DNA of 64,000 nucleotides from Chryseobacterium aquaticum (GCF_036677985.1 NZ_JAZDST010000012.1:86971-150970); one strand, 5' to 3'. Positions 8,393-20,948 are shown, counted from the stretch's first letter. The notes: a model not told the origin generated them from the sequence alone. Program-made: numbers and translations.

Positions 8393-8414
8393 ATTAATCA
8401 CAAAAATTGAAAAT

Positions 8415-8450
8415 AATAAGAGCGATTTCTTGACAGAAATCGCTCTTATT
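8415..8450. terminator. Strong hairpin terminator after the DUF3108 gene, probably bidirectional
   Basis: Perfect 16-bp stem AATAAGAGCGATTTCT-TGAC-AGAAATCGCTCTTATT. Confidence 0.8.
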
Positions 8451-8532
8451 AAATATTAAGGTTAATTATAGGATGTTTATTTTAGGTAATCATGAATATT
8501 AATTAAAAATTCAGATCTTTTTAAATTTTCCT

Positions 8533-8767
8533 GTATCGGTCACAGAGCTTGAAAGCTCTGCGACTATACTAAGGGTTTTAACAATTGTGTTTTTTAGAAT
8601 CGTTTCCGAATTTTTTTTCTGAGTTTAAGTATAATTTACAGAGCCTTTCGACTCTGTAAAAATACTTTGGCTTTTTATCATTTGTGTTTATACCTCCCCA
8701 AACCAAAAAATATTGGTTCCGATACTAATCTATATTTTTGTAAAGATGATTAGTGACATTTATCTTG
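8533..8767 (-). ncRNA. Putative structured small RNA, copy 1
   Basis: Downstream of a TATTTTTG element; four hairpins fold better on the minus strand; ends approximate. Confidence 0.65.
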
Positions 8768-8770
8768 AGA

Positions 8771-8850
8771 CAAAAATACGAACATCACAATATACAAATC
8801 CAGCAAAGCTTATCGATAAATGTCGATTTCATTGTAGATATTTATCTACA
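8771..8850 (-). promoter_or_regulatory. Promoter plus two 18-bp palindromic boxes, copy 1
   Basis: -7 element TATTTTTG (8771-8778), TTTG 16 nt upstream; boxes TATCGATAAATGTCGATT (8811-8828) and perfect 8-2-8 inverted repeat TGTAGATATTTATCTACA (8833-8850). Confidence 0.75.
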
Positions 8851-8996
8851 AAAATTACACTTAATGGGTTTTAAAATACATCATTTAATAAAAACATTAC
8901 AAAAGCAATTTCCCGAAAGAAATCACTCTTGTAAATATTAATTTAGTTGTTGAATGTTTTTAATTGATAAAAACCAGATATTCTGATTTTCTTAAT

Positions 8997-9215
8997 TATC
9001 GCGAAACCTGTAGATTCTGTGATATAAAAAAGGTTGTAATGATTGTAGCTTTAGAATCGTTTTCGTTTTTTCTCAAGGTTAAGTATAATTTACAGAGCCT
9101 TTCGACTCTGCAAAAAATACTTGTGTTTTTTCATTTGTGTTTTTACCTCCCCAACCAAAAATTCTTGGTTACGATACCAATCTATTTTGAACGATGATTA
9201 GTAACATTTTTCTTG
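8997..9215 (-). ncRNA. Putative structured small RNA, copy 2 (distal hairpin diverged)
   Basis: Same P1/P2/motif/P3 architecture as copy 1; ends approximate. Confidence 0.6.
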
Positions 9216-9218
9216 AGA

Positions 9219-9298
9219 CAAAAGTAGTAACATCATGATATACAAAGCCAATAAATCATGTCGATAGATATCGAACCAGCTGTAGATATTTATCGACA
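9219..9298 (-). promoter_or_regulatory. Promoter plus two 18-bp palindromic boxes, copy 2
   Basis: TACTTTTG (9219-9226); boxes TGTCGATAGATATCGAAC (9259-9276) and TGTAGATATTTATCGACA (9281-9298). Confidence 0.75.
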
Positions 9299-9432
9299 AA
9301 ATGATTTAAAAAACTTTAAAATTTAAATGAAATATTCGCAGTAGCCATTTTTGGACAGAACCGCTTTTCTAAATATTGAAATTTTTTATGGAGTTTTCTG
9401 ATATGATAGAAATTCAAAAAATTGAATTCCTT

Positions 9433-9655
9433 GTATCAATCACAGAGCAAGAAAGCTCTGCGATTATACTAAAGGTTGTAATAATTGTGTTTTTAGAATC
9501 ATTTCCGAGTTTTCTTAAATATAGTTTACAGAGCCTTTCGACTCCGCAAACAATATTTTAGATTTTTTCATCATTTGTATTTTTACCTCCCAAGTTAAAA
9601 ATCTTGGTTTGTCACTAATCTATCTTTGGAACAATGATTAGTGATATTTTTCTTG
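9433..9655 (-). ncRNA. Putative structured small RNA, copy 3
   Basis: Same architecture as copy 1, with a compensatory G-C to A-U change in the distal hairpin; ends approximate. Confidence 0.65.
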
Positions 9656-9658
9656 AGA

Positions 9659-9738
9659 CAAAAGTAGTAACATATTGATATACAAACACAGTAAATCATA
9701 TCGATAAATGTCGAACGAGCTATAGATACTTATCTACA
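9659..9738 (-). promoter_or_regulatory. Promoter plus two 18-bp palindromic boxes, copy 3
   Basis: TACTTTTG (9659-9666); boxes TATCGATAAATGTCGAAC (9699-9716) and TATAGATACTTATCTACA (9721-9738). Confidence 0.75.
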
Positions 9739-9793
9739 ACTTATGATAAAGATGATTAAAAATAAAATTTACAAGAGAATCTTTAAGTGATAA

Positions 9794-10438
9794 TTACTGA
9801 TGGTTTTTCACCAATTCAACAAGTTCTACAATATTATCAATCTTTAATTTGTCAAATATCCGCTTTTTAATTGTACTTACTGTATTTTGTTTGAGATCCA
9901 GAAGATTTGCAATTTCGAGGTTTCCGTGACCTTTGCTGTACAGTTCTGCAATTTGTAATTCTCTTTCGGTAAGACCAAACAATGGATTGATAACTTTACG
10001 ATCTCGTAGAGAATTCATCAACAAAGCCTGTGTAGCGGGAGAAATATATTCTCCATCTTCTTTCATTTTTATAATTGCTTTCTTGATTTCTTCTTCCTCA
10101 CTTAGCTTGCTTAAAAAACCATTGGCACCTGCATTGATGTATTTAAGAGCATGCATATTTTCGTCTATTCCTGTAAATACCAGAATTTTTGTCTCAGGAT
10201 TTATTTTTCTTATTTCAGGTATTAAACTCAAACTATTACCGTCTGGAAAATGAGCATCAATAATCACTATATCTATGGGATTTGCTTTTATCAGCTCCAA
10301 TGTCTTTTGTAAATTCGGAGCCTGAAGAATTACAGTGTCAAACGGCAGATCTTCCAACAGGAAAGCGATTCCCTGTCGTATTAAGCTATGATCATCTGCA
10401 AGAAGAAAATTTATTGATGTATTCTCAATATAACTCAT
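9794..10438 (-). CDS. NarL/FixJ (LuxR-HTH) family response regulator
   Basis: LLADDH, IIDAHFPDG (phospho-Asp), VFTG, GFLSK receiver residues; LTERELQI...EIANLLDLKQNTVST HTH. Confidence 0.93.
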   Translation of the reverse strand: MSYIENTSINFLLADDHSLIRQGIAFLLEDLPFDTVILQAPNLQKTLELIKANPIDIVIIDAHFPDGNSLSLIPEIRKINPETKILVFTGIDENMHALKYINAGANGFLSKLSEEEEIKKAIIKMKEDGEYISPATQALLMNSLRDRKVINPLFGLTERELQIAELYSKGHGNLEIANLLDLKQNTVSTIKKRIFDKLKIDNIVELVELVKNHQ

Positions 10439-12165
10439 TTATTCAACTTTAAATTAAGAGAAAAAGATACGGTAGTTCCTTCATTTAACTCGCTATCGAC
10501 AGAAATATTACCTGAATATAATTCGACAAGTTCTTTACACAAACTCAATCCTAGACCCGCACCAAGATTTTCTACCTCATCGGAAATAATTCCCTGATAA
10601 TAAGGTTCAAATATTTTTTCTAAATCTGACTTTGAAATTCCTACGCCAGAATCCGTAATCTGCGTTTTTAGAACAACAGTATTTTCATCTACAGGCTCTG
10701 CAGAAGTCTTTACCGTAATTTCACCATTCTCTGTAAATTTATTGGCATTTCCGAGAATATTCATAAAAAGCTGATTGATTTTTGTATTGTCTGAATATAC
10801 AACAATATTCGGATCAATGTTTTTATCAATAATAAATTTATTATTTCTTGTCTGAATATAAGGCTCTATAGAAGTTAAGATAGATTCTACTTCGTTATTC
10901 AGATTAAAACTCACAGGAATCAGTTTATTTTCAACCTGTTGATTTTTAGTATATTCCAAAATCTGATTTGCCTGCATCAAAAGTGTATTATTAGTAAAGC
11001 TTATAGATTTTAAATACTCTTTAATGCTTTCGTCTGTTGTTTTCTTATTAATCCTATTGATGAAAATACCAATAATTTTCAAAGGAGACCTCAATTCGTG
11101 GCTCAACATTCCCAGAATTCTGTTTTTGAAATTCAGATTCTCTTTAATCTGAAGATTAGCAGCATTTAATCTTCTCTCATAAATAAATGCAATTCTTGTA
11201 AAATACATGATTAATATAGAAACGATAAACATCAAAATCATTAATCCTATGACCAGATCTTTTCTGATTTTATTACTTTTAGAATTTTGCGCAGCATACT
11301 CTTTTTCAAGATCCGTTTTAGAATCTTTTACCGCAGATTCATACACTCTCATCAGTTCGTTACTGTAAACCAATAATGAATTGAATGTAGAAAAGAGCTT
11401 CACACTCTCGTTTTTCCCATTATCTTTATTCTTGTTTACATTTACACGTATTTTTTGAACTTCTTTTGTGTAATGCTTATTGATGGAGTTTACAATACTG
11501 TCAACTTCACCTTTTACAGTAGGAATATCTAATATTTTACCGCCTTTTACCGTTACTACCACACTGTCTTTCCTTACGTTTTCCTTTCCTGATATTGCAT
11601 CACCGATACGACCAAACAAACCCTTCTTTTTTACGGTATCAGAATATGTTTTGGTTTGTACCTCAAATTTATCGAAATTATAATTGTAGTTGTACGTTTT
11701 AAGTTTCGGCAGAGCTTCGGGTATTTTTAGATTTGCATTTGTAGAAAACTGATAGGTAGAATCTGTAAGCAATTTTAGATTTTTTGTTTCGCCTACATTC
11801 TTTTTGTGAGATACTAAAATAGTTTTTACTCTCGGATTTTGAAATTTAAAATTATTAATGCTGTCAAGATTTTTTGTCAGTTTATTAACAGAAGTAAAAT
11901 AAGATTTTAAATACTGATCGTCTCGGCTGGTAACGTATTCCTGAAAATAATTTTGTGCATTATTAAGCTCTTTTCGGGAATCATCCGTAAGGTTCTCCAA
12001 TTGGTGAACTTCATTTAATTGTTTTTCAATGAAGTTTAAATTCTTATTATTAACGAATTCATTGTAAAAAAAACCTGCTATTATACATTGTATTAAAAGA
12101 ATGCAAATAATAAAAGAATATTGTACAATTTTTCTCAATCTAAAACTCATCGACTTTTTAACCAT
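10435..12165 (-). CDS. Membrane sensor histidine kinase (HisKA + HATPase_c)
   Basis: Two TM segments flanking a periplasmic domain; SHELRSPL H-box, NILGNANKFT, DSGVGI, GAGLGLSLC; 4-nt overlap with the response regulator. Confidence 0.93.
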   Translation of the reverse strand: MVKKSMSFRLRKIVQYSFIICILLIQCIIAGFFYNEFVNNKNLNFIEKQLNEVHQLENLTDDSRKELNNAQNYFQEYVTSRDDQYLKSYFTSVNKLTKNLDSINNFKFQNPRVKTILVSHKKNVGETKNLKLLTDSTYQFSTNANLKIPEALPKLKTYNYNYNFDKFEVQTKTYSDTVKKKGLFGRIGDAISGKENVRKDSVVVTVKGGKILDIPTVKGEVDSIVNSINKHYTKEVQKIRVNVNKNKDNGKNESVKLFSTFNSLLVYSNELMRVYESAVKDSKTDLEKEYAAQNSKSNKIRKDLVIGLMILMFIVSILIMYFTRIAFIYERRLNAANLQIKENLNFKNRILGMLSHELRSPLKIIGIFINRINKKTTDESIKEYLKSISFTNNTLLMQANQILEYTKNQQVENKLIPVSFNLNNEVESILTSIEPYIQTRNNKFIIDKNIDPNIVVYSDNTKINQLFMNILGNANKFTENGEITVKTSAEPVDENTVVLKTQITDSGVGISKSDLEKIFEPYYQGIISDEVENLGAGLGLSLCKELVELYSGNISVDSELNEGTTVSFSLNLKLNK

Positions 12166-12250
12166 TTTGCGTGTATTTAGTGTATAAATTTAATAAAAAT
12201 TCCCGTAAAAATGATTTTTACAGGAATTCTATTTATTTAATTATAATCGT

Positions 12251-13261
12251 TTATAATGTTTTAAACTGCTCTAATGTTCTTTTATCATTCTCGAAGAACA
12301 TTCTGATGTCACTCATTTGATAAAGCAGCATTGTAATTCTCTCAATTCCCATTCCGAAAGCATAACCAGAATATTTTTCAGAATCTATATTTACATTCTT
12401 CAAAACAGCAGGATCTACCATACCACAACCCATAATTTCCAACCAACCTGTTCCTTTTGTAATTCTGTAATCTGTCTCGGAGTTTAATCCCCAATACACA
12501 TCAATTTCTGCGCTTGGCTCAGTAAAAGGAAAATATGAAGGTCTCATCCTGATTTTAGATTTCCCGAAAAGCTCGGTGGTAAAAAACTGAATCGTCTGCT
12601 TCAAATCTGCAAAACTTACCTTTTCATCAATATATAAACCTTCAATCTGATGGAAAATACAGTGTGAACGAGAAGAAACTGCCTCATTTCTGAAAACTCT
12701 TCCTGGAGATAAAATTCTGATTGGTGGCTGATTTTCTTCCATATAACGAATCTGAACCGAAGAAGTGTGCGTTCTCAAAAGAATATCAGGATTTTGCTCA
12801 ATGAAAAAAGTATCCTGCATATCTCTTGCCGGATGATATTCGGGTAAATTAAGCGCAGTGAAATTATGCCAGTCATCTTCAATTTCCGGTCCGTCTGCTA
12901 CAGCAAAACCTATTGACTTAAAAATCTCTATAATTCTGTTTTTCACCAAATTAATAGGATGTCTGGAACCTAAATCTAAAGGGAAAGCCGGTCTCGTAAG
13001 ATCTTCTTTTTCTAAAACAACAGAAGATTCGGAAGCATTTTTAAAATCTTCCAATTTTGCTAATATAGCTTGCTTTAAAGAATTAACTTTCTGCCCGAAT
13101 TCTTTTTTCTGATCATTGGGAACTGTTTTTAACGCATCATAAAAATCGTTTAAAACTCCTTTTTTACCATTATACTTGATTCGGAAATTCTCTATTTCAT
13201 CTTTGGATGTTGCGCTGAAGTTGTTTACTTCGATGAGTAATTCTTCTATCTTTTCTGTCAT
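12251..13261 (-). CDS. pheS: Phenylalanine-tRNA ligase alpha subunit
   Basis: [37 protein letters not shown]. Confidence 0.98.
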
Positions 13262-13387
13262 TATATTAACCCTTTCAAAAATGTATCTGCAAAAATAAGG
13301 TTTTCCAACTAAAAAAGTTTTGAATTTTTCATAAAAAAACTGTCTTTTTCGGAAGACAGTTTTATATTAATTCTTAAAGTTGAAAAT

Positions 13388-14044
13388 TTACTTCTTTTCT
13401 AAAGCTTTAATATTGATCTGAAGAGTAATTTCATCTTTTATTACCCCGTTTTCTACAGGACTTTGAAATTTCACACCAAACTCTTCTCTCATTATATCTT
13501 TTGGCTCTGTTGCAATACTTACTGTTCCTTCGTTTACGGAAACATTGGCTTTAAATTGCACAGGTTTTGTAATTCCTTTAATAGTTAAATTCCCATCAAG
13601 AATTGTGTTGTAATCACCTTCAGCAGATGGAGTTACCTTTGTAATCTCATAAGAAGAAGTCGGGAATTTTTCAGTTTCAAAAAAATCTCCGCTTTTAAGA
13701 TGACCATTTAGTTTAGATAATTGCTCTGCATCTTCTTTTAAATCTACTGAAGTAAGAGAATTCATATCTGCAACAAATTTCCCACTTTCCAGCTTCCCAT
13801 CTTTTACAGTTACGTCTCCGCTTTCAAAGGTAATCGTTCCAAAATGACCTGTGTTTTCAGACTTAAAAACCTTATAACCCTTCCACTCCACTTTACTGTT
13901 GAGCGTATCAATTACATATTTGTCTCCTTCTTTTGTGGTTGTAACTTCATTATTTTCACTTGTTACAGGTTTTTCTTTTTGACAAGACACCACTATTGCT
14001 GCAAAAAGTACGGGAACAGCAAATAAGAACAATTTTCTTTTCAT
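13388..14044 (-). CDS. YceI family lipoprotein
   Basis: Lipobox VVSC; SKVEWKG, HLKSGDFFETEKFP, GNLTIKGITKPV. Confidence 0.88.
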   Translation of the reverse strand: MKRKLFLFAVPVLFAAIVVSCQKEKPVTSENNEVTTTKEGDKYVIDTLNSKVEWKGYKVFKSENTGHFGTITFESGDVTVKDGKLESGKFVADMNSLTSVDLKEDAEQLSKLNGHLKSGDFFETEKFPTSSYEITKVTPSAEGDYNTILDGNLTIKGITKPVQFKANVSVNEGTVSIATEPKDIMREEFGVKFQSPVENGVIKDEITLQINIKALEKK

Positions 14045-14194
14045 ATTGTAGAATATTATTTGTTTTAAAGCTTTATAATCGCATTTTCCGGCTCAGATAT
14101 TTAGAACCATTACTGTGATTTTATAATAATTTTAACACTATGCAAAATTACTAAAAATATGCCAGTCTTCTGTAAAAACCACTATTTTTGCATA

Positions 14195-15133
14195 ATGTTA
14201 CTAGAGATAAACAACTTACATTTTTCACATACTAAAGACCATCCTTTATTCAGAAACTTCAGCCTTACATTGGATGAGGGAAAAATCATTGCTTTGGCAG
14301 GAGAAAGCGGTTGCGGAAAATCTACGCTGCTGAGTCTTATCTATGGACTTCTGAATTGGGAAGAAGGCGAAATCATCTTCGAAGGCAATAAACTTTTGGG
14401 ACCGAAAGGAAACTTAGTGCCCGGAGAAGCAGAGATGAAATTTGTAGCTCAGAATTTTGATCTGATGCCTTATGCGACCGTAGCAGAAAATGTAGGAAAA
14501 TTTCTTTCAAATATTAATTTGGTAAAGAAAAAAGAAACCGTAAAAGAACTTCTGGAAGTAGTAGGATTATCAGAATTTGCCAACGTTCTGCCAAAAAATC
14601 TGAGTGGCGGACAACAGCAAAGAGTTGCCATTGCAAGAGCGCTTTCAGTTTTACCGAAATTACTTTTGCTGGATGAACCTTTCAGTCATCTTGATTTTGC
14701 CCGAAAAATTGAACTTCGGGAAAAACTTTTCAGGTATGTAAAAGAAAAAAATATCTCACTCATTATTTCTACGCATGAACTTCAGGATATTATTCCGTGG
14801 TTGGATCAACTTGTAATTTTACAAAACGGAAGACTAATACAGAATGACAGTCCCGAAGAAACGTATCAAAACCCTTACAATATATATGTTGCAAAACTTT
14901 TTGGTGAAGTCAATATCTTTACAGAAACTGAAATGAAAGATTTTGAAATTCCACGTTTTGCATATTATCCGCAACAGATAAAAATTTCAGAAAATGGCTT
15001 TGAAGCAAAAGTTCTGGAAAGCAGATTTGCAGGAAATCATTACTGGAATAGAATAATCTCAAAAAATAAAGAACTTATCGTTCATACCAATGAGAAAATA
15101 CAAGGTTTTGTAAGAATATCTTTAGCCAATTAA
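14195..15133 (+). CDS. ABC transporter ATP-binding protein (FbpC/PotA-like)
   Basis: GESGCGKST Walker A, LSGGQQQRV signature, LLLDEP Walker B; start re-set to MLLEIN at 14195. Confidence 0.88.
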   Translation: MLLEINNLHFSHTKDHPLFRNFSLTLDEGKIIALAGESGCGKSTLLSLIYGLLNWEEGEIIFEGNKLLGPKGNLVPGEAEMKFVAQNFDLMPYATVAENVGKFLSNINLVKKKETVKELLEVVGLSEFANVLPKNLSGGQQQRVAIARALSVLPKLLLLDEPFSHLDFARKIELREKLFRYVKEKNISLIISTHELQDIIPWLDQLVILQNGRLIQNDSPEETYQNPYNIYVAKLFGEVNIFTETEMKDFEIPRFAYYPQQIKISENGFEAKVLESRFAGNHYWNRIISKNKELIVHTNEKIQGFVRISLAN

Positions 15134-15392
15134 CAATTATTTATTACTCTTAATGTTAGTTTGTGGATAAATTAGAAAGATTTAGTTAGCTGATTTACAG
15201 TTATTTTAATAAATTTGATATAACTAAAAACATAAGGAAATTTTTGGTTCAATTCTCTTCCTACTAATAAACTGAAATTAGCATTTTGCCTGCAATGAAA
15301 GTTTTTGGAAGATTACACTGTTCAATCTTTTCCTTTTTCTAAAAAAAATGCGCCCATTTAGGAGCGCATTTTATATTTCTACAAGAGAATTA

Positions 15393-15737
15393 TTAAGCTT
15401 TCTTTACAAACTCAGATTTCAAAGCCATAGAACCAAAACCATCAATTTTACAGTCAATATTATGATCGCTTTCTGGTCTTAGTCTGATATTTTTCACTTT
15501 AGTACCTGCTTTTACTGGTTTCGGAGCACCTTTTACAGGCAGATCTTTTACAACAACTACAGAATCTCCATCGTGTAATTCGTTTCCGTTGGCATCTAAA
15601 ATTTTTCCCGCATTATCGCTTTCCGAAGCAGTTTCCTCAGGATTCCATTCGTGGAAACACTGCGAACAAACCATCATATTATCACTTGGATAAGTAAATT
15701 CCGAACCGCATTTTGGGCAAACCAAAGTATCACTCAT
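15393..15737 (-). CDS. PhnA/YjdM-type zinc-ribbon protein
   Basis: CPKCGS...[30 protein letters not shown]; start re-set to MSDTLVC. Confidence 0.88.
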
Positions 15738-15989
15738 TTTATTAATTTTTTGCAAAGGTAATTTTTTTGAATTATAAGTCAGGAAAAATTAGAAAATACG
15801 TTTTATTGCAGATAAGCTAAAGTCTAGAAAAGTGAAGTTTAGTTTAAATCAACAAAAAAAAAAAAAAAAATGATTGTAAGTTTTTATCTTTAGTCTAATT
15901 TCTTTCATCCAATTATAAGTCACAATTATAAACTCATTACTCTCAACTTAAATTCGTATTTTTGCAAGTTCAAACAGCTTACTGCAATT

Positions 15990-17195
15990 ATGGAATTGAT
16001 ACACAGAAACTTGGCAATCGGGATTCACGATGCTTTACAAGAAACTTTTTTTGAGAAAAATAAATACGCCGACAAAGTAATCGAAAGACTTTTGAAGTCA
16101 CACAGAAAGTGGGGAAGCCAGGACAGAGCAGTTGTTTCAGAGATTTTCTACAACATTATCCGTTGGAAAAGACGTTTGGAATATTATATGGGCGAAAGCG
16201 TAAAGCCAGACAATGTATATAAGCTGATTGTTGCATACTGTCTTTATAGCAAAACCAATTACAAAAGATTTGAAGAGTTTGAAGGCATTAAAATCGCTGA
16301 TATTACTACTAAATTGAAGAAAGGAACCGTTCCTACAAAATCTATAGAATACTCAATTCCCGAATGGCTAGCCGAAACTTTGGAAAAAGAATTGGGACCT
16401 ATCTGGGAAAAAGAAATGAAGGCATTAAATGAGCAGGCTCCCACCGTTTTGAGAGCAAACTCTTTGAAAACTTCTCCGAAAGAATTGATCTCAGATCTTG
16501 CAGATGATAATGTGGTCGCATATACTGTAAGAAATTATCCTGATGCAGTGCAGTTAGAAGAGAAAAAAAATGTTTTTCTTACGAGTGCTTTTAAAGACGG
16601 ATTGTTTGAAGTACAAGATGCAACCTCTCAAAAAATCGGTTACTTTTTAGATGTAAAAGAAGGTCAACGCGTTGTTGATGCTTGTGCAGGTGCAGGTGGA
16701 AAAACGCTTCATCTTGCTGCATTAATGGGTAATAAAGGACAAATCATTGCTTTAGATATTTACGAATGGAAGTTGGCTGAGCTAAAACGTCGTGCAAAAA
16801 GAGCCGGAGCTCACAATATCGAAACCCGAATGATTTCTGATAACAAAGTGATCAAACGTCTTCATGAGAAAGCCGATAGATTATTGATTGATGCACCGTG
16901 TTCAGGTTTGGGAGTTTTAAAAAGAAATCCGGACAGCAAATGGAAAATTGATCAGGCTTTTATCGACAGAATAAAAACAGAACAGCAGCAAATTCTTCAG
17001 GACTATTCTAAAATCCTTAAAAAAGGCGGAAAAATGGTGTATGCAACGTGTTCCATTCTTCCATCTGAAAACAACGAACAGGTTGCAGAATTTCTGAAAA
17101 ACAACCCTGATTTCAAATTAATAAAAGACGAAAAAATAATGCCAAGTCAAGGATATGATGGATTCTACATGGCTCTTATTGAAAGATTAGCTTAA
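15990..17195 (+). CDS. RsmB/NOL1/NOP2/sun family m5C RNA methyltransferase
   Basis: FEVQDA, VDACAGAGGKT, LIDAPCSGLG, VYATCSI. Confidence 0.92.
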   Translation: MELIHRNLAIGIHDALQETFFEKNKYADKVIERLLKSHRKWGSQDRAVVSEIFYNIIRWKRRLEYYMGESVKPDNVYKLIVAYCLYSKTNYKRFEEFEGIKIADITTKLKKGTVPTKSIEYSIPEWLAETLEKELGPIWEKEMKALNEQAPTVLRANSLKTSPKELISDLADDNVVAYTVRNYPDAVQLEEKKNVFLTSAFKDGLFEVQDATSQKIGYFLDVKEGQRVVDACAGAGGKTLHLAALMGNKGQIIALDIYEWKLAELKRRAKRAGAHNIETRMISDNKVIKRLHEKADRLLIDAPCSGLGVLKRNPDSKWKIDQAFIDRIKTEQQQILQDYSKILKKGGKMVYATCSILPSENNEQVAEFLKNNPDFKLIKDEKIMPSQGYDGFYMALIERLA

Positions 17196-17295
17196 ATCTC
17201 ATTTACCATAAAATACACAAACTACTCTATTTTTGGAGTAGTTTTTTTTATTAACTCATTCAAAACTTTACCTTTGTGAAAACCATCAAAACATC

Positions 17296-18960
17296 ATGAT
17301 CAAATCATTACTGCTCAGTTTTTTCACATTTTTATCTGTTTTACATCTTGCACAGACTTATGAAATTCAATACACAAGTTCTTATAATGGCAAAATACAG
17401 CCCAATCAAAACCCTGTCATTGTTTGGGTGAATGAAACTGAAAATTATATTTTAAATTCAAAAATAAAAGATCAGAAAAACGAATATCCCTTTGAGATCA
17501 GTAAAATAGAAAAACCTTCCAACACAATCATTTCATACGGATTTTTAAAATATGGGGAAATTATTTCAACTTCTGACGCCCAATCAATTGGAAAACAAAG
17601 TTTTGAATTTACAGATAAAACAAAGAAAATTTTAGGATATAATTGTAAACAGGCGGTTACAAAAATCAATTCAAACACCATTGAAATTTGGTATACCAAT
17701 GATCTTAAACTGAAAGGTGGACCATCTAGCCTCGGACAAAACTTAGGTTTGGTTTTAGAAATCGAGCGAAACGGAAATTCCGCAACTACCGCCACTTCTC
17801 TGAAAAAGATCAAAAAATCCGGTATTGAAAATATTATCAACAAGCCGACAACGACGACGGATCTTTTAAGCTACAAAGATTTGCTTTGGAAAAGCAGATT
17901 TACCAGTTTAAAAGTTTTTGAAAACGAAATCATCAATTTTTCTGATCAATCAAAGTCAGACGAAAATATCAAGCGATTTGCCAACGGAACTATTATTCTC
18001 AAAAAAATAAAGTTCCCGGAAATTTCACAAGGTGAAAATATTTTTATTGAATTAAAACAACAATCCAACGGCGATGCTTATGACAGAACAGGAACTGTAT
18101 TTTTTATTCCTGAAAACAAATCTCAATCTTTCTTTGACGGACTGGAAAAAGGAGTAAAAACTCTTCCTGCATACGAAAACGGGAACGGTAAACAATATTT
18201 TGGTGTTATTTCTACTGAAAATTACCAACCAACTGTAGAACTGATGAGATTTTTTACAGCATTCGGGATTAATAAATTCAATAATCTGGAACTGAAAGAT
18301 AAAACCTGGCAAATAGTGAGTCCGTTTCGTCAAGACGTTACAGAACTGAAACCTTCTCTTTCGGGAAAAGAAATCTGGGTAGGAACATTTATCGGGAATT
18401 ACGACAAAGGAGGTCATAAAGTAACTTTAGATATTACAATTCACAAAAGCGATCAAATTGTACATACCAACAAAAAGGTAATCCCACTTTTTAATACTAC
18501 AAATATTATGGAAATGGCTGGACAGGATTATGCAACAATGTTTGATAACGATAAAGGAATTCTGGTAGAATTTAATCTCGAAAAAGATCTTAAAAATGCA
18601 CAGTTAAGATATATTACAACCGGACATGGAGGTTGGGAAAACGGCGACGAATTTATCCCGAAAGAAAATTATATTTTTTTAGACGAGAAAAAGATCTTCT
18701 CTTTTACGCCTTGGAGAACAGATTGTGGTTCTTATCGACTTTACAATCCTGCTTCAGGAAATTTTCCGGACGGACTTTCTTCTTCAGATCTTAGTCGTTC
18801 AAATTGGTGTCCGGGAACAATTACCAATCCCAATTATATACAATTGGGTGATTTAAAAGCTGGAAAACATACTATTCAGGTGAAAATTCCTCAGGGAAAA
18901 CCGGAAGGAACAAGTTTCAGCGCATGGAATATTTCCGGTGTTTTATTAGGTTCAGAATAA
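17296..18960 (+). CDS. Peptide-N-glycosidase F family protein with N-terminal GLPGLI-like domain (PNGase F-II type)
   Basis: Signal peptide; KKILGYNCKQA...WYT..GP GLPGLI-like segment; DAYDRTG, TTGHGGW..GDEF and RSNWCPG motifs. Confidence 0.82.
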   Translation: MIKSLLLSFFTFLSVLHLAQTYEIQYTSSYNGKIQPNQNPVIVWVNETENYILNSKIKDQKNEYPFEISKIEKPSNTIISYGFLKYGEIISTSDAQSIGKQSFEFTDKTKKILGYNCKQAVTKINSNTIEIWYTNDLKLKGGPSSLGQNLGLVLEIERNGNSATTATSLKKIKKSGIENIINKPTTTTDLLSYKDLLWKSRFTSLKVFENEIINFSDQSKSDENIKRFANGTIILKKIKFPEISQGENIFIELKQQSNGDAYDRTGTVFFIPENKSQSFFDGLEKGVKTLPAYENGNGKQYFGVISTENYQPTVELMRFFTAFGINKFNNLELKDKTWQIVSPFRQDVTELKPSLSGKEIWVGTFIGNYDKGGHKVTLDITIHKSDQIVHTNKKVIPLFNTTNIMEMAGQDYATMFDNDKGILVEFNLEKDLKNAQLRYITTGHGGWENGDEFIPKENYIFLDEKKIFSFTPWRTDCGSYRLYNPASGNFPDGLSSSDLSRSNWCPGTITNPNYIQLGDLKAGKHTIQVKIPQGKPEGTSFSAWNISGVLLGSE

Positions 18961-19028
18961 AACAAAACCTCCTTGCAATATTATTACAAGGAGGTAAAAA
19001 CACAAATGATGAAAAAAAATTATTTCGA
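18961..19028 (-). ncRNA. Candidate U-rich small RNA
   Basis: Minus-strand terminator with no minus-strand gene nearby; TTTTTTTTCATCATTTGTGTTTTT precedes it; only an imperfect promoter (TTCCTTTG, 19033-19040). Confidence 0.4.
18964..18995 (-). terminator. Terminator hairpin with a U tract only on the minus strand
   Basis: ACCTCCTTG/CAAGGAGGT stem; followed by TTTTGTTTT on the minus strand but AAAAACAC on the plus strand. Confidence 0.7.
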
Positions 19029-19280
19029 GCAACAAAGGAATGAAAAATATTTGAATTATTAATTACCATAGATCAAGATTTATAAACTTTTTTTGATTTT
19101 GTAGGTTTTATGCACATAATTCACTTGTTAAAAATATCAATCTGAAACACGACAATCGCGGTAATTAAAATTAAATTTTAATTTATTTAAATCAATTTAA
19201 TGAAAAATATGAACTTTAAGTAAATTTTTGTTTTAAAATTTATCTATATTTATTATTTTTGCTTTTAAATAAAAAATAGA

Positions 19281-20948
19281 ATGTGTGGAATCGTATGCTT
19301 GTTTGATGCCAAACAACAAACTGAAATATTAAGACCTCAAGTCTTGGAAATGTCTAAAAAAATTCGTCATCGTGGTCCGGACTGGAGCGGAGTCTTTCAA
19401 AATGAAAATGTTTTGTTTTCCCATGAAAGACTTGCCATTGTAGATCCTACTTCCGGAAAGCAACCTTTATTTTCTAAAGACGGAAAAATTGTTTTAGCTG
19501 TAAATGGTGAAATTTACAATCATCAAGAACTGAAAAAAGAATTTCCAGACTATGAGTTTCAAACAAAATCTGACTGCGAAGTTATTTTAGCTCTTTACCA
19601 AAAATACGGGAAAGACTTTATTGAAAAACTCAACGGAATTTTTGCTTTTGCATTATATGATATTGAAAATAATATTTATCTGATTGCCCGTGATCACATG
19701 GGAATCTGCCCTCTGTATCAAGGTTGGGACAAAAACGGAAATTATTATATCGCCTCAGAACTGAAAGCTTTGGAAGGTGTGTGTAAAAAAATAGACAACT
19801 TTCTTCCCGGTCATTATGTATACAGTGTAGATGGAAGTGAACTTCAGCAGTGGTATAAAAGAGACTGGGAAAACTATGATGCGGTGAAAGATAATGTTAC
19901 CGACATTCAGGCAATCAGAAAAGGACTGGAAGATGCAGTTCACAGACAATTGATGAGCGACGTTCCTTACGGAGTTTTGCTTTCAGGAGGTTTAGATTCA
20001 TCTATAATTTCTGCAGTTACTGCAAAATATGCGAGACAGAGAATAGAAAGTGGCGATACTCAGGAAGCTTGGTATCCGAGATTACACAGTTTTGCGGTTG
20101 GTTTGGTAGGTTCTCCGGATTTGGCAGCAGCTAAAAAAGCGGCAGATCATATTGGTTCAGTTCACCATGAGGTTAATTTTACGGTTCAGGAAGGTCTGGA
20201 TGCAATTCGTGATGTCATCTACCATTTGGAAACTTACGATGTAACAACAATCAGAGCTTCTACACCAATGTATCTTCTGGCAAGAGTCATTAAGTCGATG
20301 GGAATAAAAATGGTGCTTTCCGGTGAAGGTGCAGACGAATTGTTTGGTGGATATTTATATTTCCATAAAGCTCCGAATGCTAAAGAATTTCATGATGAAA
20401 CGGTAAGAAAATTAGGTAAACTTCACCTTTATGATTGCTTGAGAGCCAACAAAGCTTTGATGAGTTGGGGAATTGAAGGAAGAGTTCCGTTTTTGGATAA
20501 AGAATTTATGGATGTTGCGATGACCGTAAATCCTCAGGATAAAATGATTAACAAAGCAGAAGGTAAAATTGAAAAATGGGTTTTACGAAAAGCTTTTGAA
20601 GATCTTTTACCGGAATCTATTGCCTGGAGACAGAAAGAACAGTTTTCAGACGGAGTTGGCTATTCCTGGATTGACACCTTAAAAGATGTTGCCGAAAAAT
20701 ATGTATCCGATGAAATGATGGCAAACGCAAAATTCAGATTCCCTTTGAATACGCCTCAAAACAAAGAAGAGTATCGTTACAGAACCATTTTTGAAGAACA
20801 TTTCCCAAGCGAAACTGCTGCTGCAACTGTACCTTCTGTACCTTCTGTAGCTTGCTCCACTCCTATCGCTTTAGAATGGGATGAAGCATTTAAGAAAATG
20901 AATGACCCGAGCGGAAGAGCTGTGAAAGTGCACGAAACTTCTTATTAA
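19281..20948 (+). CDS. asnB: Asparagine synthase B (glutamine-hydrolysing)
   Basis: MCGI N-terminus, HRGPDWSG, LLSGGLDSS, SGEGADELFGGY, RQKEQFSDGVG. Confidence 0.97.
   Translation: MCGIVCLFDAKQQTEILRPQVLEMSKKIRHRGPDWSGVFQNENVLFSHERLAIVDPTSGKQPLFSKDGKIVLAVNGEIYNHQELKKEFPDYEFQTKSDCEVILALYQKYGKDFIEKLNGIFAFALYDIENNIYLIARDHMGICPLYQGWDKNGNYYIASELKALEGVCKKIDNFLPGHYVYSVDGSELQQWYKRDWENYDAVKDNVTDIQAIRKGLEDAVHRQLMSDVPYGVLLSGGLDSSIISAVTAKYARQRIESGDTQEAWYPRLHSFAVGLVGSPDLAAAKKAADHIGSVHHEVNFTVQEGLDAIRDVIYHLETYDVTTIRASTPMYLLARVIKSMGIKMVLSGEGADELFGGYLYFHKAPNAKEFHDETVRKLGKLHLYDCLRANKALMSWGIEGRVPFLDKEFMDVAMTVNPQDKMINKAEGKIEKWVLRKAFEDLLPESIAWRQKEQFSDGVGYSWIDTLKDVAEKYVSDEMMANAKFRFPLNTPQNKEEYRYRTIFEEHFPSETAAATVPSVPSVACSTPIALEWDEAFKKMNDPSGRAVKVHETSY

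Follow-up and report, generated by a model that had tools for sequence, protein, structure and literature searches.

The window analysed here, a 64,000-nt stretch of Chryseobacterium aquaticum DNA, carries a histidine kinase gene and a response regulator gene next to an array of three tandem non-coding units. The features of this region are as follows.

10435..12165, minus strand: histidine kinase of 576 aa with HisKA and HATPase_c domains (domain search).
9794..10438, minus strand: NarL/LuxR-type response regulator with REC and GerE domains (Pfam).
9721..9738: 18-bp palindrome, putative operator of unit 3, found upstream of every unit in 13 genomes.
9281-9298 and 8833-8850: the same palindrome, putative operators of units 2 and 1, respectively (comparison across genomes).
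8414..9655, minus strand: three tandem non-coding units, u3, u2 and u1 (repeat families, terminators and P3 strand asymmetry).
8934-8897 and 8451-8414, minus strand: array terminators (terminator scan).
9563..9591, minus strand: unit 3 site A, GGGAGGUAAAAAUACAAAUGAUGAAAAAA, with 29 contiguous pairs to sRNA1, 7 nt of them into the terminator stem.
9485..9502, minus strand: unit 3 site B, AUGAUUCUAAAAACACAA, with 18 contiguous pairs to sRNA3, including 8 nt of the sRNA3 terminator stem.
9131..9153, minus strand: unit 2 site A, with 23 contiguous pairs to sRNA1.
9049..9060, minus strand: unit 2 site B, ACGAUUCUAAAG, complementary to the sRNA3 stem and the beginning of the seed; the remainder has diverged.
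8677..8697, minus strand: unit 1 site A, GGAGGUAUAAACACAAAUGAU, a 13-nt run, one mismatch and then GGAGGU.
8591..8603, minus strand: unit 1 site B, ACGAUUCUAAAAA, with one extra A followed by ACACAA.

The repeat families of the units are spaced 440-450 nt. Each unit has its own -7 box, the hairpins P1, P2, P3 (with a GAAA loop) and P4, two anti-seed sites and the conserved 18-bp palindrome (genus consensus TGTAGATAAATATCTACA), always alongside the kinase-regulator pair. Comparison across species supports transcription of the units from the minus strand: in the P3 hairpin, 22 cells are G-U on this strand versus 25 mismatches on the other, and the units of relatives have clear terminators on the same strand. 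The kinase-regulator-array cassette was found in 12 of 20 syntenic loci, with an array in every cassette; the tandem units, the histidine kinase and the NarL/GacA-like regulator are a movable cassette. The best NCBIfam match of the regulator is the UvrY/SirA/GacA family, at 112.7 bits and thus under the 280-bit cut-off. The kinase core resembles BarA and LuxQ, and the domain search found neither a receiver nor an HPt domain in the kinase.

The second locus lies at 19 kb and consists of the following features.

18957..19029, minus strand: sRNA1 gene of about 70 nt (terminator scan, ortholog alignment, stem covariation and strand asymmetry, MFE fold).
18996..19029, minus strand: sRNA1 seed region, CUCGAAAUAAUUUUUUUUCAUCAUUUGUGUUUUUA, invariant in 24 aligned orthologs.
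18967..18995, minus strand: sRNA1 terminator stem-loop, ACCUCCUUGUA...UGCAAGGAGGU (covariation, with U-G pairs on the minus strand only).
19033..19040, minus strand: -7 promoter box, TTCCTTTG, imperfect (ortholog and paralog comparison).

The layout is a single-stranded 5' seed, unpaired in the MFE fold, then a terminator hairpin and lastly a U tail overlapping the PNGase F-II stop codon; the 5' end is predicted from the position of the -7 box. The terminator scan found a sole intrinsic-terminator-like site in 18.8-19.4 kb, on the minus strand at 18995-18967 and followed by TTTGTTTTAT. Across orthologs, 99.6% of the stem cells were paired and four pairs showed compensatory changes on both sides, and 12 cells that are U-G on the minus strand would turn into C-A mismatches if read from the plus strand. 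The -7 box at this position reads TTACTTTG in most orthologs, and a clear -33 TTG was not seen upstream of sRNA1 in this genome. A syntenic ortholog was present in all 61 Chryseobacterium genomes sampled, with about 37 nt invariant, including the seed UCGAAAUAAUUUUUUUUCAUCAUUUGUGUUUUU, while the flanking coding DNA was just 71-83% identical. The initial annotation had assigned the 19-kb RNA to the minus strand from terminator polarity, and the compensatory changes, the strand-limited U-G cells and the -7 boxes of paralogs on that strand all agree. On this comparative evidence, the 19-kb element is the gene of a minus-strand sRNA of about 70 nt, one of a multicopy Weeksellaceae family.

Three clear copies of the family occur in this genome. 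The paralogs have canonical TAnnTTTG -7 boxes at the same distance as in sRNA1, and their terminator stems are unrelated in sequence; the sRNA3 paralog lies on genome contig C24 and its type is conserved in 7 genomes. The seed was present in 39 of 49 Weeksellaceae genera, with about 0 matches for the reversed control, and a 21-mer of the seed region in 140 of 201 Weeksellaceae genomes, while the 19-mer seed was absent from all 17 other families of the order. Among 61 other seed-sense loci, a hairpin and a U-run were found in 47, and 39 of these 47 also had a -7-like box. Within the 3.89-Mb genome, exact 17- to 21-mers were limited to three sRNA-type loci and one coding sequence, and close variants to the three array units and one gene start. 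With so few occurrences, the motif is not the high-copy dispersed repeat that the initial annotation had considered. A search of the window with the Rfam 15 covariance models returned tRNAs only, with no CsrB or Rsm match, and nothing beyond noise at E<=10 for sRNA1 or the array.

The two loci are linked by complementarity. The minus strand at 9563-9590 reads GGAGGTAAAAATACAAATGATGAAAAAA and the plus strand at 18990-19017 reads GGAGGTAAAAACACAAATGATGAAAAAA, identical at 27 of 28 positions, with 0 such matches expected by chance (100 dinucleotide shuffles). Rechecking of the sequences upheld this previously noted match of copy 3, as well as those of copy 2 (20/20, the first 20 nt being exact at 9131-9150) and copy 1 (one mismatch, 8678-8697). 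At the RNA level, if both loci are transcribed from the minus strand, sRNA1 and unit 3 would form 29 contiguous pairs, the DNA mismatch becoming a G-U wobble. The duplexes are A/U-rich, and their contiguous pairing at sites A and B, respectively, is 29 and 18 nt in unit 3, 23 and 12 nt in unit 2, and 13 nt at both sites in unit 1. Within the genome, the seed finds its best duplex partner in unit 3 (-27.1 kcal/mol, against -23.7 kcal/mol for the strongest of 10,280 gene starts and a shuffle mean of -13.0 kcal/mol with sd 2.3). The value for units 1 and 2 is just -18.8 kcal/mol, about 2.8 sd below shuffled sequences and close to the 1% tail for gene starts. The k-mers most enriched across 25 units of 13 genomes were the seed complement, at 47 sense and 0 antisense sites, and the repeated motif of the units is AAACACAAAUGAUGAAA.

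The two transcripts carry complementary and not identical sequences, which is at odds with the earlier suggestion that one RNA-binding protein recognizes a motif common to both loci. One DNA-binding protein using the shared 28 bp in either orientation would account for the same DNA word at several loci, but the word is non-palindromic, lies within transcribed regions and recurs in a single orientation, up to about ten times, and its orientation strictly follows the locus class (sRNA genes in one sense, decoys in the opposite), which makes such a site hardly plausible.

Pairing also extends beyond the seed. In all three units the hexamer GGAGGU fits sRNA1, in unit 1 beyond one mismatch, and GAUUCU fits sRNA3. 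The ACGAUUCU of the window units fits this second paralog and is present in five species from two genera, and the GAUUCU extension co-occurs with an AGAAUC stem, again in 5 species and 2 genera. A single RNA of a relative, genome G015, has about ten sites, two of which fit nearly the whole 33-nt 5' region, and in another genus a single RNA with eight sites follows the same kinase-regulator cassette. The invasion of the terminator stem proposed in the initial annotation gains from these paralog-specific extensions, but the GGAGGU extension towards the 19-kb copy, on which it had been built, was limited to this genome and one other among the 14 in which decoy RNAs occur. Taken together, base pairing of the array RNAs with the sRNAs is well supported by sequence comparison.

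Part of the match may have another origin. Both loci have ACAAA(A)CC, a hairpin and GGAGGT before the core, so that site A plus P2 has the appearance of an inverted sRNA1 terminator that has since diverged, and the match is therefore possibly in part inherited and not selected. Taken to its limit, the arrays would derive from inverted sRNA gene copies and the complementarity would be a functionless relic today. This is very unlikely, as the sites are kept across 13 genomes and 2 genera while the remainder of the unit diverges beyond alignment, and they are multiplied within RNAs, always on the transcribed strand.

The invariant single-stranded 5' region of the family is the reverse complement of a Bacteroidota-type start (an A-rich leader and AUG AUG AAA AAA), and the seed region of sRNA1 is complementary to an A-rich start region followed by AUG-AUG-AAA-AAA; the genome-wide start consensus is likewise A-rich plus ATGAAAAAA. 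Since the seed complements the start region, the sRNA family most likely blocks translation through base pairing that covers start codons. Among mRNAs, the HRDC-domain gene that follows ssb is a conserved candidate target: in 25 of 30 species its start region, AAUUCUAAAAACACAAAUGAUGAAAG, has at most 2 mismatches to the core. The other target predictions were weak.

Start-like motifs could also act as CsrB/RsmZ-style decoys for a start-binding protein, such as an RRM-1 protein or ribosomal protein S1, with the sRNAs matching merely through recognition of the same class of start region. The best family match of the regulator (UvrY/GacA) and the BarA- and LuxQ-like kinase core point in this direction, as do the multiple motifs, some in hairpin loops, and the Gac-box-like palindrome TGTAGA-N6-TCTACA. 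In addition, one RRM_1 protein is encoded in the genome (contig C8:470784-470987), and RbpB binds FopS sRNAs in Bacteroides (PMC11697453). However, complementarity reaches 29-33 nt and enters paralog-specific terminator stems, and since these stems have no common sequence, a common protein motif fails to explain it. CsrA (PF02599) was not found in a six-frame search of the 99.9% complete genome, in which the positive controls matched, so there is nothing of that kind for decoys to titrate. Protein decoys are thus distinctly unlikely.

Reversed control was also considered, with the tandem RNAs as regulated targets that the sRNAs repress or destabilize, for example as carriers of mini-ORFs or as RNAs acting through the P1, P3 and P4 hairpins. 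Site A does hold AUG-AUG, followed in the window by short ORFs of 14-19 codons, and the sRNA family is far wider in distribution than the cassette and therefore exists independently of the arrays. But the frame of these ORFs shifts from one unit to the next, their length varies from 4 to about 24 codons among species, and they encode no conserved peptide. Moreover, the 2 to about 10 sites per RNA, the tandem amplification and the dedicated, predicted inducible promoter argue for the design of a titrating RNA and not of a target, so we consider reversed control unlikely.

The probable reading, in our judgement, is an anti-start sRNA family together with two-component-system-induced tandem decoy RNAs that sequester it. 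The tandem minus-strand RNAs would be mimics of start regions, each unit with one site tailored to sRNA1 (GGAGGU plus core) and one to sRNA3 (ACGAUUCU plus core), both covering a further 6-8 nt in the 5' arm of the matching terminator stem. Firing of the two-component system would bring the regulator to the palindromes upstream of each unit, and the decoy RNAs, produced in bulk, would pair with the sRNAs, sequester them and probably destabilize them by opening the terminator hairpin, so releasing their mRNA targets. The sponge pair proposed in the initial annotation is supported comparatively by the strands of both RNAs and by selection on the motif. What the comparison shows is a conserved complementarity, the strand, the anatomy and the tie to the two-component system; we infer that both RNAs are expressed, that they form a duplex, which of them controls the other and what the output is. 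The arrangement looks like an undescribed RNA-against-RNA control circuit across Weeksellaceae.

Among known systems, SroC/GcvB, the chbBC spacer/ChiX and AgvB share with the proposed decoys target mimicry, in which a copied target site draws an sRNA off its mRNAs. Those sponges have single sites and are mostly by-products of mRNAs or tRNA precursors. We know of none of this single-site type with multi-site tandem genes or pairing tailored to terminator stems.

QrrX of Vibrio cholerae is a non-coding RNA that inactivates the Qrr1-4 sRNA paralogs through base pairing with a shared conserved region (PMC9732341). The array likewise combines a dedicated non-coding RNA, a paralogous sRNA family as proposed partner and its own predicted transcriptional activator, and its units show the extended complementarity to a conserved sRNA region that marks a QrrX-type sponge. 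QrrX is, however, a single, Hfq-dependent RNA with a LysR-type regulator (PMC9732341), whereas the present decoys come as tandem copies, carry 2 to about 10 sites on each RNA, are associated with a two-component system, belong to Bacteroidota and are predicted to pair into the terminator stems of individual paralogs.

On the sRNA side, the closest anatomy is that of FopS/GibS in Bacteroides thetaiotaomicron, multicopy sRNAs of 65-70 nt, of which FopS pairs over susC-like start codons (PMC11697453). Phylum, multicopy state, length of about 65-70 nt, canonical promoter, unstructured 5' seed and terminator hairpin are shared, a resemblance in working and not membership. The seeds have just UUUUUCAU in common, the R1/R1' seed being absent from the Weeksellaceae sRNAs, and the FopS-10/GibS 5' end GUGUUUUUCAUAGUAUUAG (oligonucleotide list) is unalignable with UCGAAAUAAUUUUUUUUCAUCAUUUGUGUUUUU beyond 8 nt. 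Moreover, FopS is limited to Bacteroidaceae and the present family to Weeksellaceae; start-codon pairing was shown for FopS and is predicted here; and the antagonist of FopS is a protein, RbpB, while here it is proposed to be RNA.

The proposed logic is closest to Gac/Rsm (BarA-UvrY/CsrB-CsrA in Gammaproteobacteria), with a NarL/GacA-type regulator, an upstream palindrome and often-duplicated mimic RNAs, whose many ribosome-binding-site mimics would titrate a translational repressor. Unlike Gac/Rsm, there is no CsrA, and the repressor proposed to be titrated is an sRNA family and not a protein. Instead of GGA/ANGGA in a hairpin loop, what is repeated is a start region that lacks a Shine-Dalgarno sequence, and the kinase, without receiver and HPt domains, differs from GacS and BarA, so that the combination of GacA/UvrY with a hybrid kinase is not seen. 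Only tentatively, then, do we suggest a Gac/Rsm-like global post-transcriptional switch of Weeksellaceae, with multicopy anti-start-codon sRNAs as the titrated repressor, and decoys induced by the two-component system that open hairpins and lead to sRNA decay. If so, each sRNA paralog would be caught by sites tailored to its stem on start-mimic RNAs, which carry up to about ten sites, the opened terminator hairpin would commit the sRNA to decay, and translation would be released for the HRDC gene of the ssb operon and a wider set of genes starting with AUG-AAA-AAA.

The near-identity that the initial annotation had described between the core of the tandem RNAs and a locus 10 kb away was reproduced: the two 28-mers (9590-9563, minus strand, in the third unit; 18990-19017, plus strand) differ in 1 base, copy 2 is identical over the first 20 nt and copy 1 carries the same 20 nt with one change. 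None of 100 dinucleotide-preserving shuffles gave a match. The window corresponds to C12:86971-150970 in a genome that comprises 3.89 Mb with 34% G+C, and the relatives retrieved by an exact 33-nt search were all Chryseobacterium or Weeksellaceae. The 19-kb locus lies between two coding sequences:

17296-18960, plus strand, PNGase F-II gene, one flank of sRNA1
18957-19029, minus strand, sRNA1 (about 70 nt: 5' seed, terminator hairpin, U tail)
19281-20948, plus strand, asnB, other flank of sRNA1

Assignment of the 19-kb RNA to the minus strand, as first proposed from terminator polarity, was borne out by two observations. The sole terminator-like site there is on that strand (18995-18967, followed by UUUGUUUUAU), and 12 stem cells that are U-G on the minus strand become C-A mismatches on the plus strand. 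A syntenic ortholog was found in all 61 genomes sampled from the genus. In 24 aligned orthologs, CTTTGT and a following stretch of 37 nt (TCGAAATAATTTTTTTTCATCATTTGTGTTTTTACCT) show no variation, while the flanking coding DNA is just 71-83% identical. The terminator stem covaries, with 99.6% of cells paired and 4 of 11 pairs altered on both sides. A plus-strand reading frame at the locus (MMKKNYFEQQ...) was ruled out: the orthologous frames range from 11 to 18 codons, and one second-codon position shows all four bases next to 37 nt that are invariant, third positions included. Rfam scans of the 19-kb and array loci, at the gathering threshold and at E<=10, returned only noise and no family.

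The U tail of the sRNA1 terminator (18957-18966) overlaps the PNGase F-II stop codon, and this adjacency is kept in the syntenic orthologs of the genus sample. A read-through PNGase mRNA would form a perfect cis-antisense partner for sRNA1. The FopS sRNAs of Bacteroides control an N-glycan utilisation locus, a parallel that may be coincidence.

Two further copies of the sRNA are present in the genome (contig C8, ~292.8 kb; contig C24, ~9.0 kb), as well as a diverged copy with seed and terminator at C24:26697 (minus strand). The genome's paralogs have a common seed, each followed by an unrelated G+C-rich hairpin and a U-run. In other members of the genus, a Bacteroidota -7 box of canonical form (TATATTTG, TAATTTTG or TAACTTTG) lies about 6 nt upstream of TCGAAATAATTTTTTTTCATCATTTGTGTTTTT in the paralogs; the same position in the 19-kb copy reads TTCCTTTG or TTACTTTG. 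A stable hairpin with a U-run was found at 47 of 61 further distinct seed-sense loci, 39 of these 47 having a TAnnTTT[GA] box no more than 80 nt upstream. The seed 21-mer, allowing 1 mismatch, occurs in 140 of 201 Weeksellaceae genomes and 39 of 49 genera, with a reversed control of about zero, and the exact seed 19-mer was found in none of ~180 genomes that represent the remaining 17 families of the order.

The matching partner is an array of three minus-strand units (8414-9655) at 440-450 nt spacing, downstream of a histidine kinase and a NarL-type response regulator. Each unit has hairpins P1-P4 and two sites complementary to the seed, A and B. Two unit terminators came from the terminator scan:

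8934-8897, minus strand, unit terminator
8451-8414, minus strand, unit terminator

Every unit, here and at the other syntenic loci with units, is preceded by an 18-bp palindrome (consensus TGTAGATAAATATCTACA), the putative operator, and a -7 box. The transcribed strand has a clean terminator in several species, and the P3 hairpin, with a GAAA loop, shows 22 G-U cells on the minus strand versus 25 mismatches on the other. Coding units were ruled out, unit 2 being frameshifted and the small ORFs showing no peptide conserved across species. The kinase-regulator pair was present in 12 of 20 syntenic loci, always with 1-6 units, and absent in 8, where DUF3108 abuts pheS. The module (8393-12165) is a presence/absence cassette between DUF3108 and pheS when compared with loci L049, L052-L054, L057, L059, L060 and L062. 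Its regulator is just 62-72% identical between species, compared with 92-96% for the adjoining pheS. Two extra operator palindromes, one of them perfect, lie elsewhere in the genome (C24:26371-26388 and C48:52306-52323), and no RNA unit was recognised beside either.

In minimum free energy folds, neither the seed nor the A-rich cores are paired. RNAduplex on full-length RNAs yielded unrealistic whole-molecule duplexes, and seed-only duplexes and contiguous-pair counts were used instead. The seed duplex with unit 3 was calculated at -27.1 kcal/mol, against -13.0 ± 2.3 for shuffles; among 10,280 gene-start windows the best was -23.7 kcal/mol, with the 1% tail at -18.2. Units 1 and 2 gave -18.8 kcal/mol, about 2.8 sd below shuffles, and the seed-site duplexes are A/U-rich and modest one by one.

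Beyond the seed, both sites are extended towards particular paralogs. Site A of units 3 and 2 continues from the core into GGAGGU, complementary to the first stem bases of sRNA1 (ACCUCC) and, using wobbles, to the C8 paralog (GCCUUC); in unit 1, GGAGGU follows one mismatch. Contiguous runs at site A are 29, 23 and 13 nt in units 3, 2 and 1. Site B of all units contains A(C/U)GAUUCU, the complement of the start of the C24 paralog stem (AGAAUCGU), giving contiguous runs of 18, 12 and 13 nt in the same order. The alternative first offered, that both loci carry one motif bound by a single RNA-binding protein, cannot explain both extensions, since the three stems share no sequence. Pairing of the array RNAs with the sRNAs is the reading retained here. 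The paralog with the AGAAUC stem is kept in G013, G003, G072, G069, G055 and G223 (the last from another genus), and GAUUCU-extended sites occur in the arrays of G013, G055, G069, G223 and the genome studied. Stem invasion through GGAGGU, also proposed initially, agrees with the complementarity to the sRNA1 stem here. That extension is rarer than the GAUUCU type, being found only in this genome and G015, so the proposal does not hold for sRNA1 in general. We know of no described sRNA sponge that pairs into terminator stems. Site A with hairpin P2 (9590-9640) reads ACAAACC, hairpin, GGAGGU, an order also seen when the sRNA1 terminator is read as its reverse complement (18958-18995: ACAAAACC, hairpin, GGAGGU). 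Decoy site A may derive from an sRNA gene copied in inverted orientation.

Across 25 units from 13 genomes, where sequence outside the sites has diverged beyond alignment, the commonest 8- and 10-mers (AAACACAA ... ACAAATGATG ... ATGATGAAAA) are the seed complement. A 15-mer of this complement, with up to 3 mismatches, was found 47 times on the transcribed strand and never on the opposite one. In G015 (L214 3560-2960, minus strand, C28), a predicted RNA of ~550 nt has about ten anti-seed sites, the same operator type and a terminator, with no kinase-regulator pair adjoining; two of its sites match the sRNA over almost the entire 33-nt single-stranded region. In G223 the kinase-regulator cassette recurs (kinase of 576 aa, regulator of 213 aa) and is followed by an RNA with eight sites. 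Similar same-strand site clusters were seen at G009:C9:129761-130143 and G075:C1:1128640-1129250. These comparisons indicate that the link between array and sRNA locus is under selection. By the standard of a purely computational case, the evidence is strong that RNA-RNA complementarity between a conserved sRNA family and the multi-site RNAs linked to the regulator has been selected.

Long ORFs in the genome start A-rich and then ATG AAA AAA, 149 of 1,820 beginning ATGAAAAAA, so that the seed reads as a generic start region in antisense. Genome-wide mRNA target scores graded smoothly from -20 to -24 kcal/mol, with no break, and predicted targets were weak except for one gene, singled out by cross-species conservation:

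C8:332630-333129, outside the window, HRDC-domain gene with conserved start region (loci L250-L279)

This gene (PF00570), which directly follows ssb, begins with AAUUCUAAAAACACAAAUGAUGAAAG in most species of Chryseobacterium. Of 30 species, 25 have a start that differs from the 19-nt core at no more than 2 positions, and 8 match it exactly. The start region is complementary to the seed together with the AGAAUC stem; by our count, the consensus could form about 25 contiguous pairs with the paralog that has this stem. The gene is therefore a candidate for a primary mRNA target of the sRNAs. The start region is the same word as site B, which looks like a copy of it. Ten secreted-looking target candidates had no common theme by eye. 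A perfect 21-25-nt target-sense motif also lies outside the window at C1:86542-86566, within the coding region for a relaxase-like protein of 520 aa that has the motif HSDTDNNHAH; it may be chance or an sRNA site in a mobile-element gene.

The array RNAs are probable antagonists of a family-wide sRNA class, probably driven by the sensor system; sponge direction, terminator opening and physiological output are what we infer from the sequences. The literature on sRNAs of Weeksellaceae and Flavobacteriia and on Bacteroidota sponges yielded nothing on this system, and no published sRNA description or Rfam family was found for Chryseobacterium, Elizabethkingia or Riemerella. RNA-based regulation in Bacteroidota beyond gut Bacteroides is nearly unexplored, and the data define a testable circuit: an sRNA class, probable antagonist RNAs, a probable driving sensor and a conserved candidate target. 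A global translational switch would matter widely, because Weeksellaceae count plant-associated strains as well as opportunistic and veterinary pathogens among their members.

In its logic, the system is closest to Gac/Rsm. The regulator has its top family match in UvrY/SirA/GacA, and the core of the kinase is similar to LuxQ and BarA, all below cut-off; the operator TGTAGA-N6-TCTACA resembles the Gac box. Unlike Gac/Rsm, the kinase is not hybrid, the repeated array motif is not GGA and CsrA is absent from the genome. If the reading is true, the design of this bacterial sRNA sponge would follow that of eukaryotic multi-site microRNA sponges, and its wiring that of Gac/Rsm without CsrA.

The FopS/GibS sRNAs of Bacteroides (65-70 nt, multicopy, with canonical promoters) are directed against start regions and have the protein RbpB as antagonist (PMC11697453). 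Only UUUUUCAU of the FopS/GibS 5' end GUGUUUUUCAUAGUAUUAG is common to both groups. The Weeksellaceae sRNAs would work like them but are not members of that family. The sole RRM_1 (RbpB-like) protein gene of the genome (C8:470784-470987) encodes a candidate partner of the sRNA family or the decoys, so a protein partner may exist. QrrX (PMC9732341), which sponges the paralogous Qrr sRNAs and has an activator of its own, is comparable in kind to the sponge proposed here but is single-copy and Hfq-dependent.
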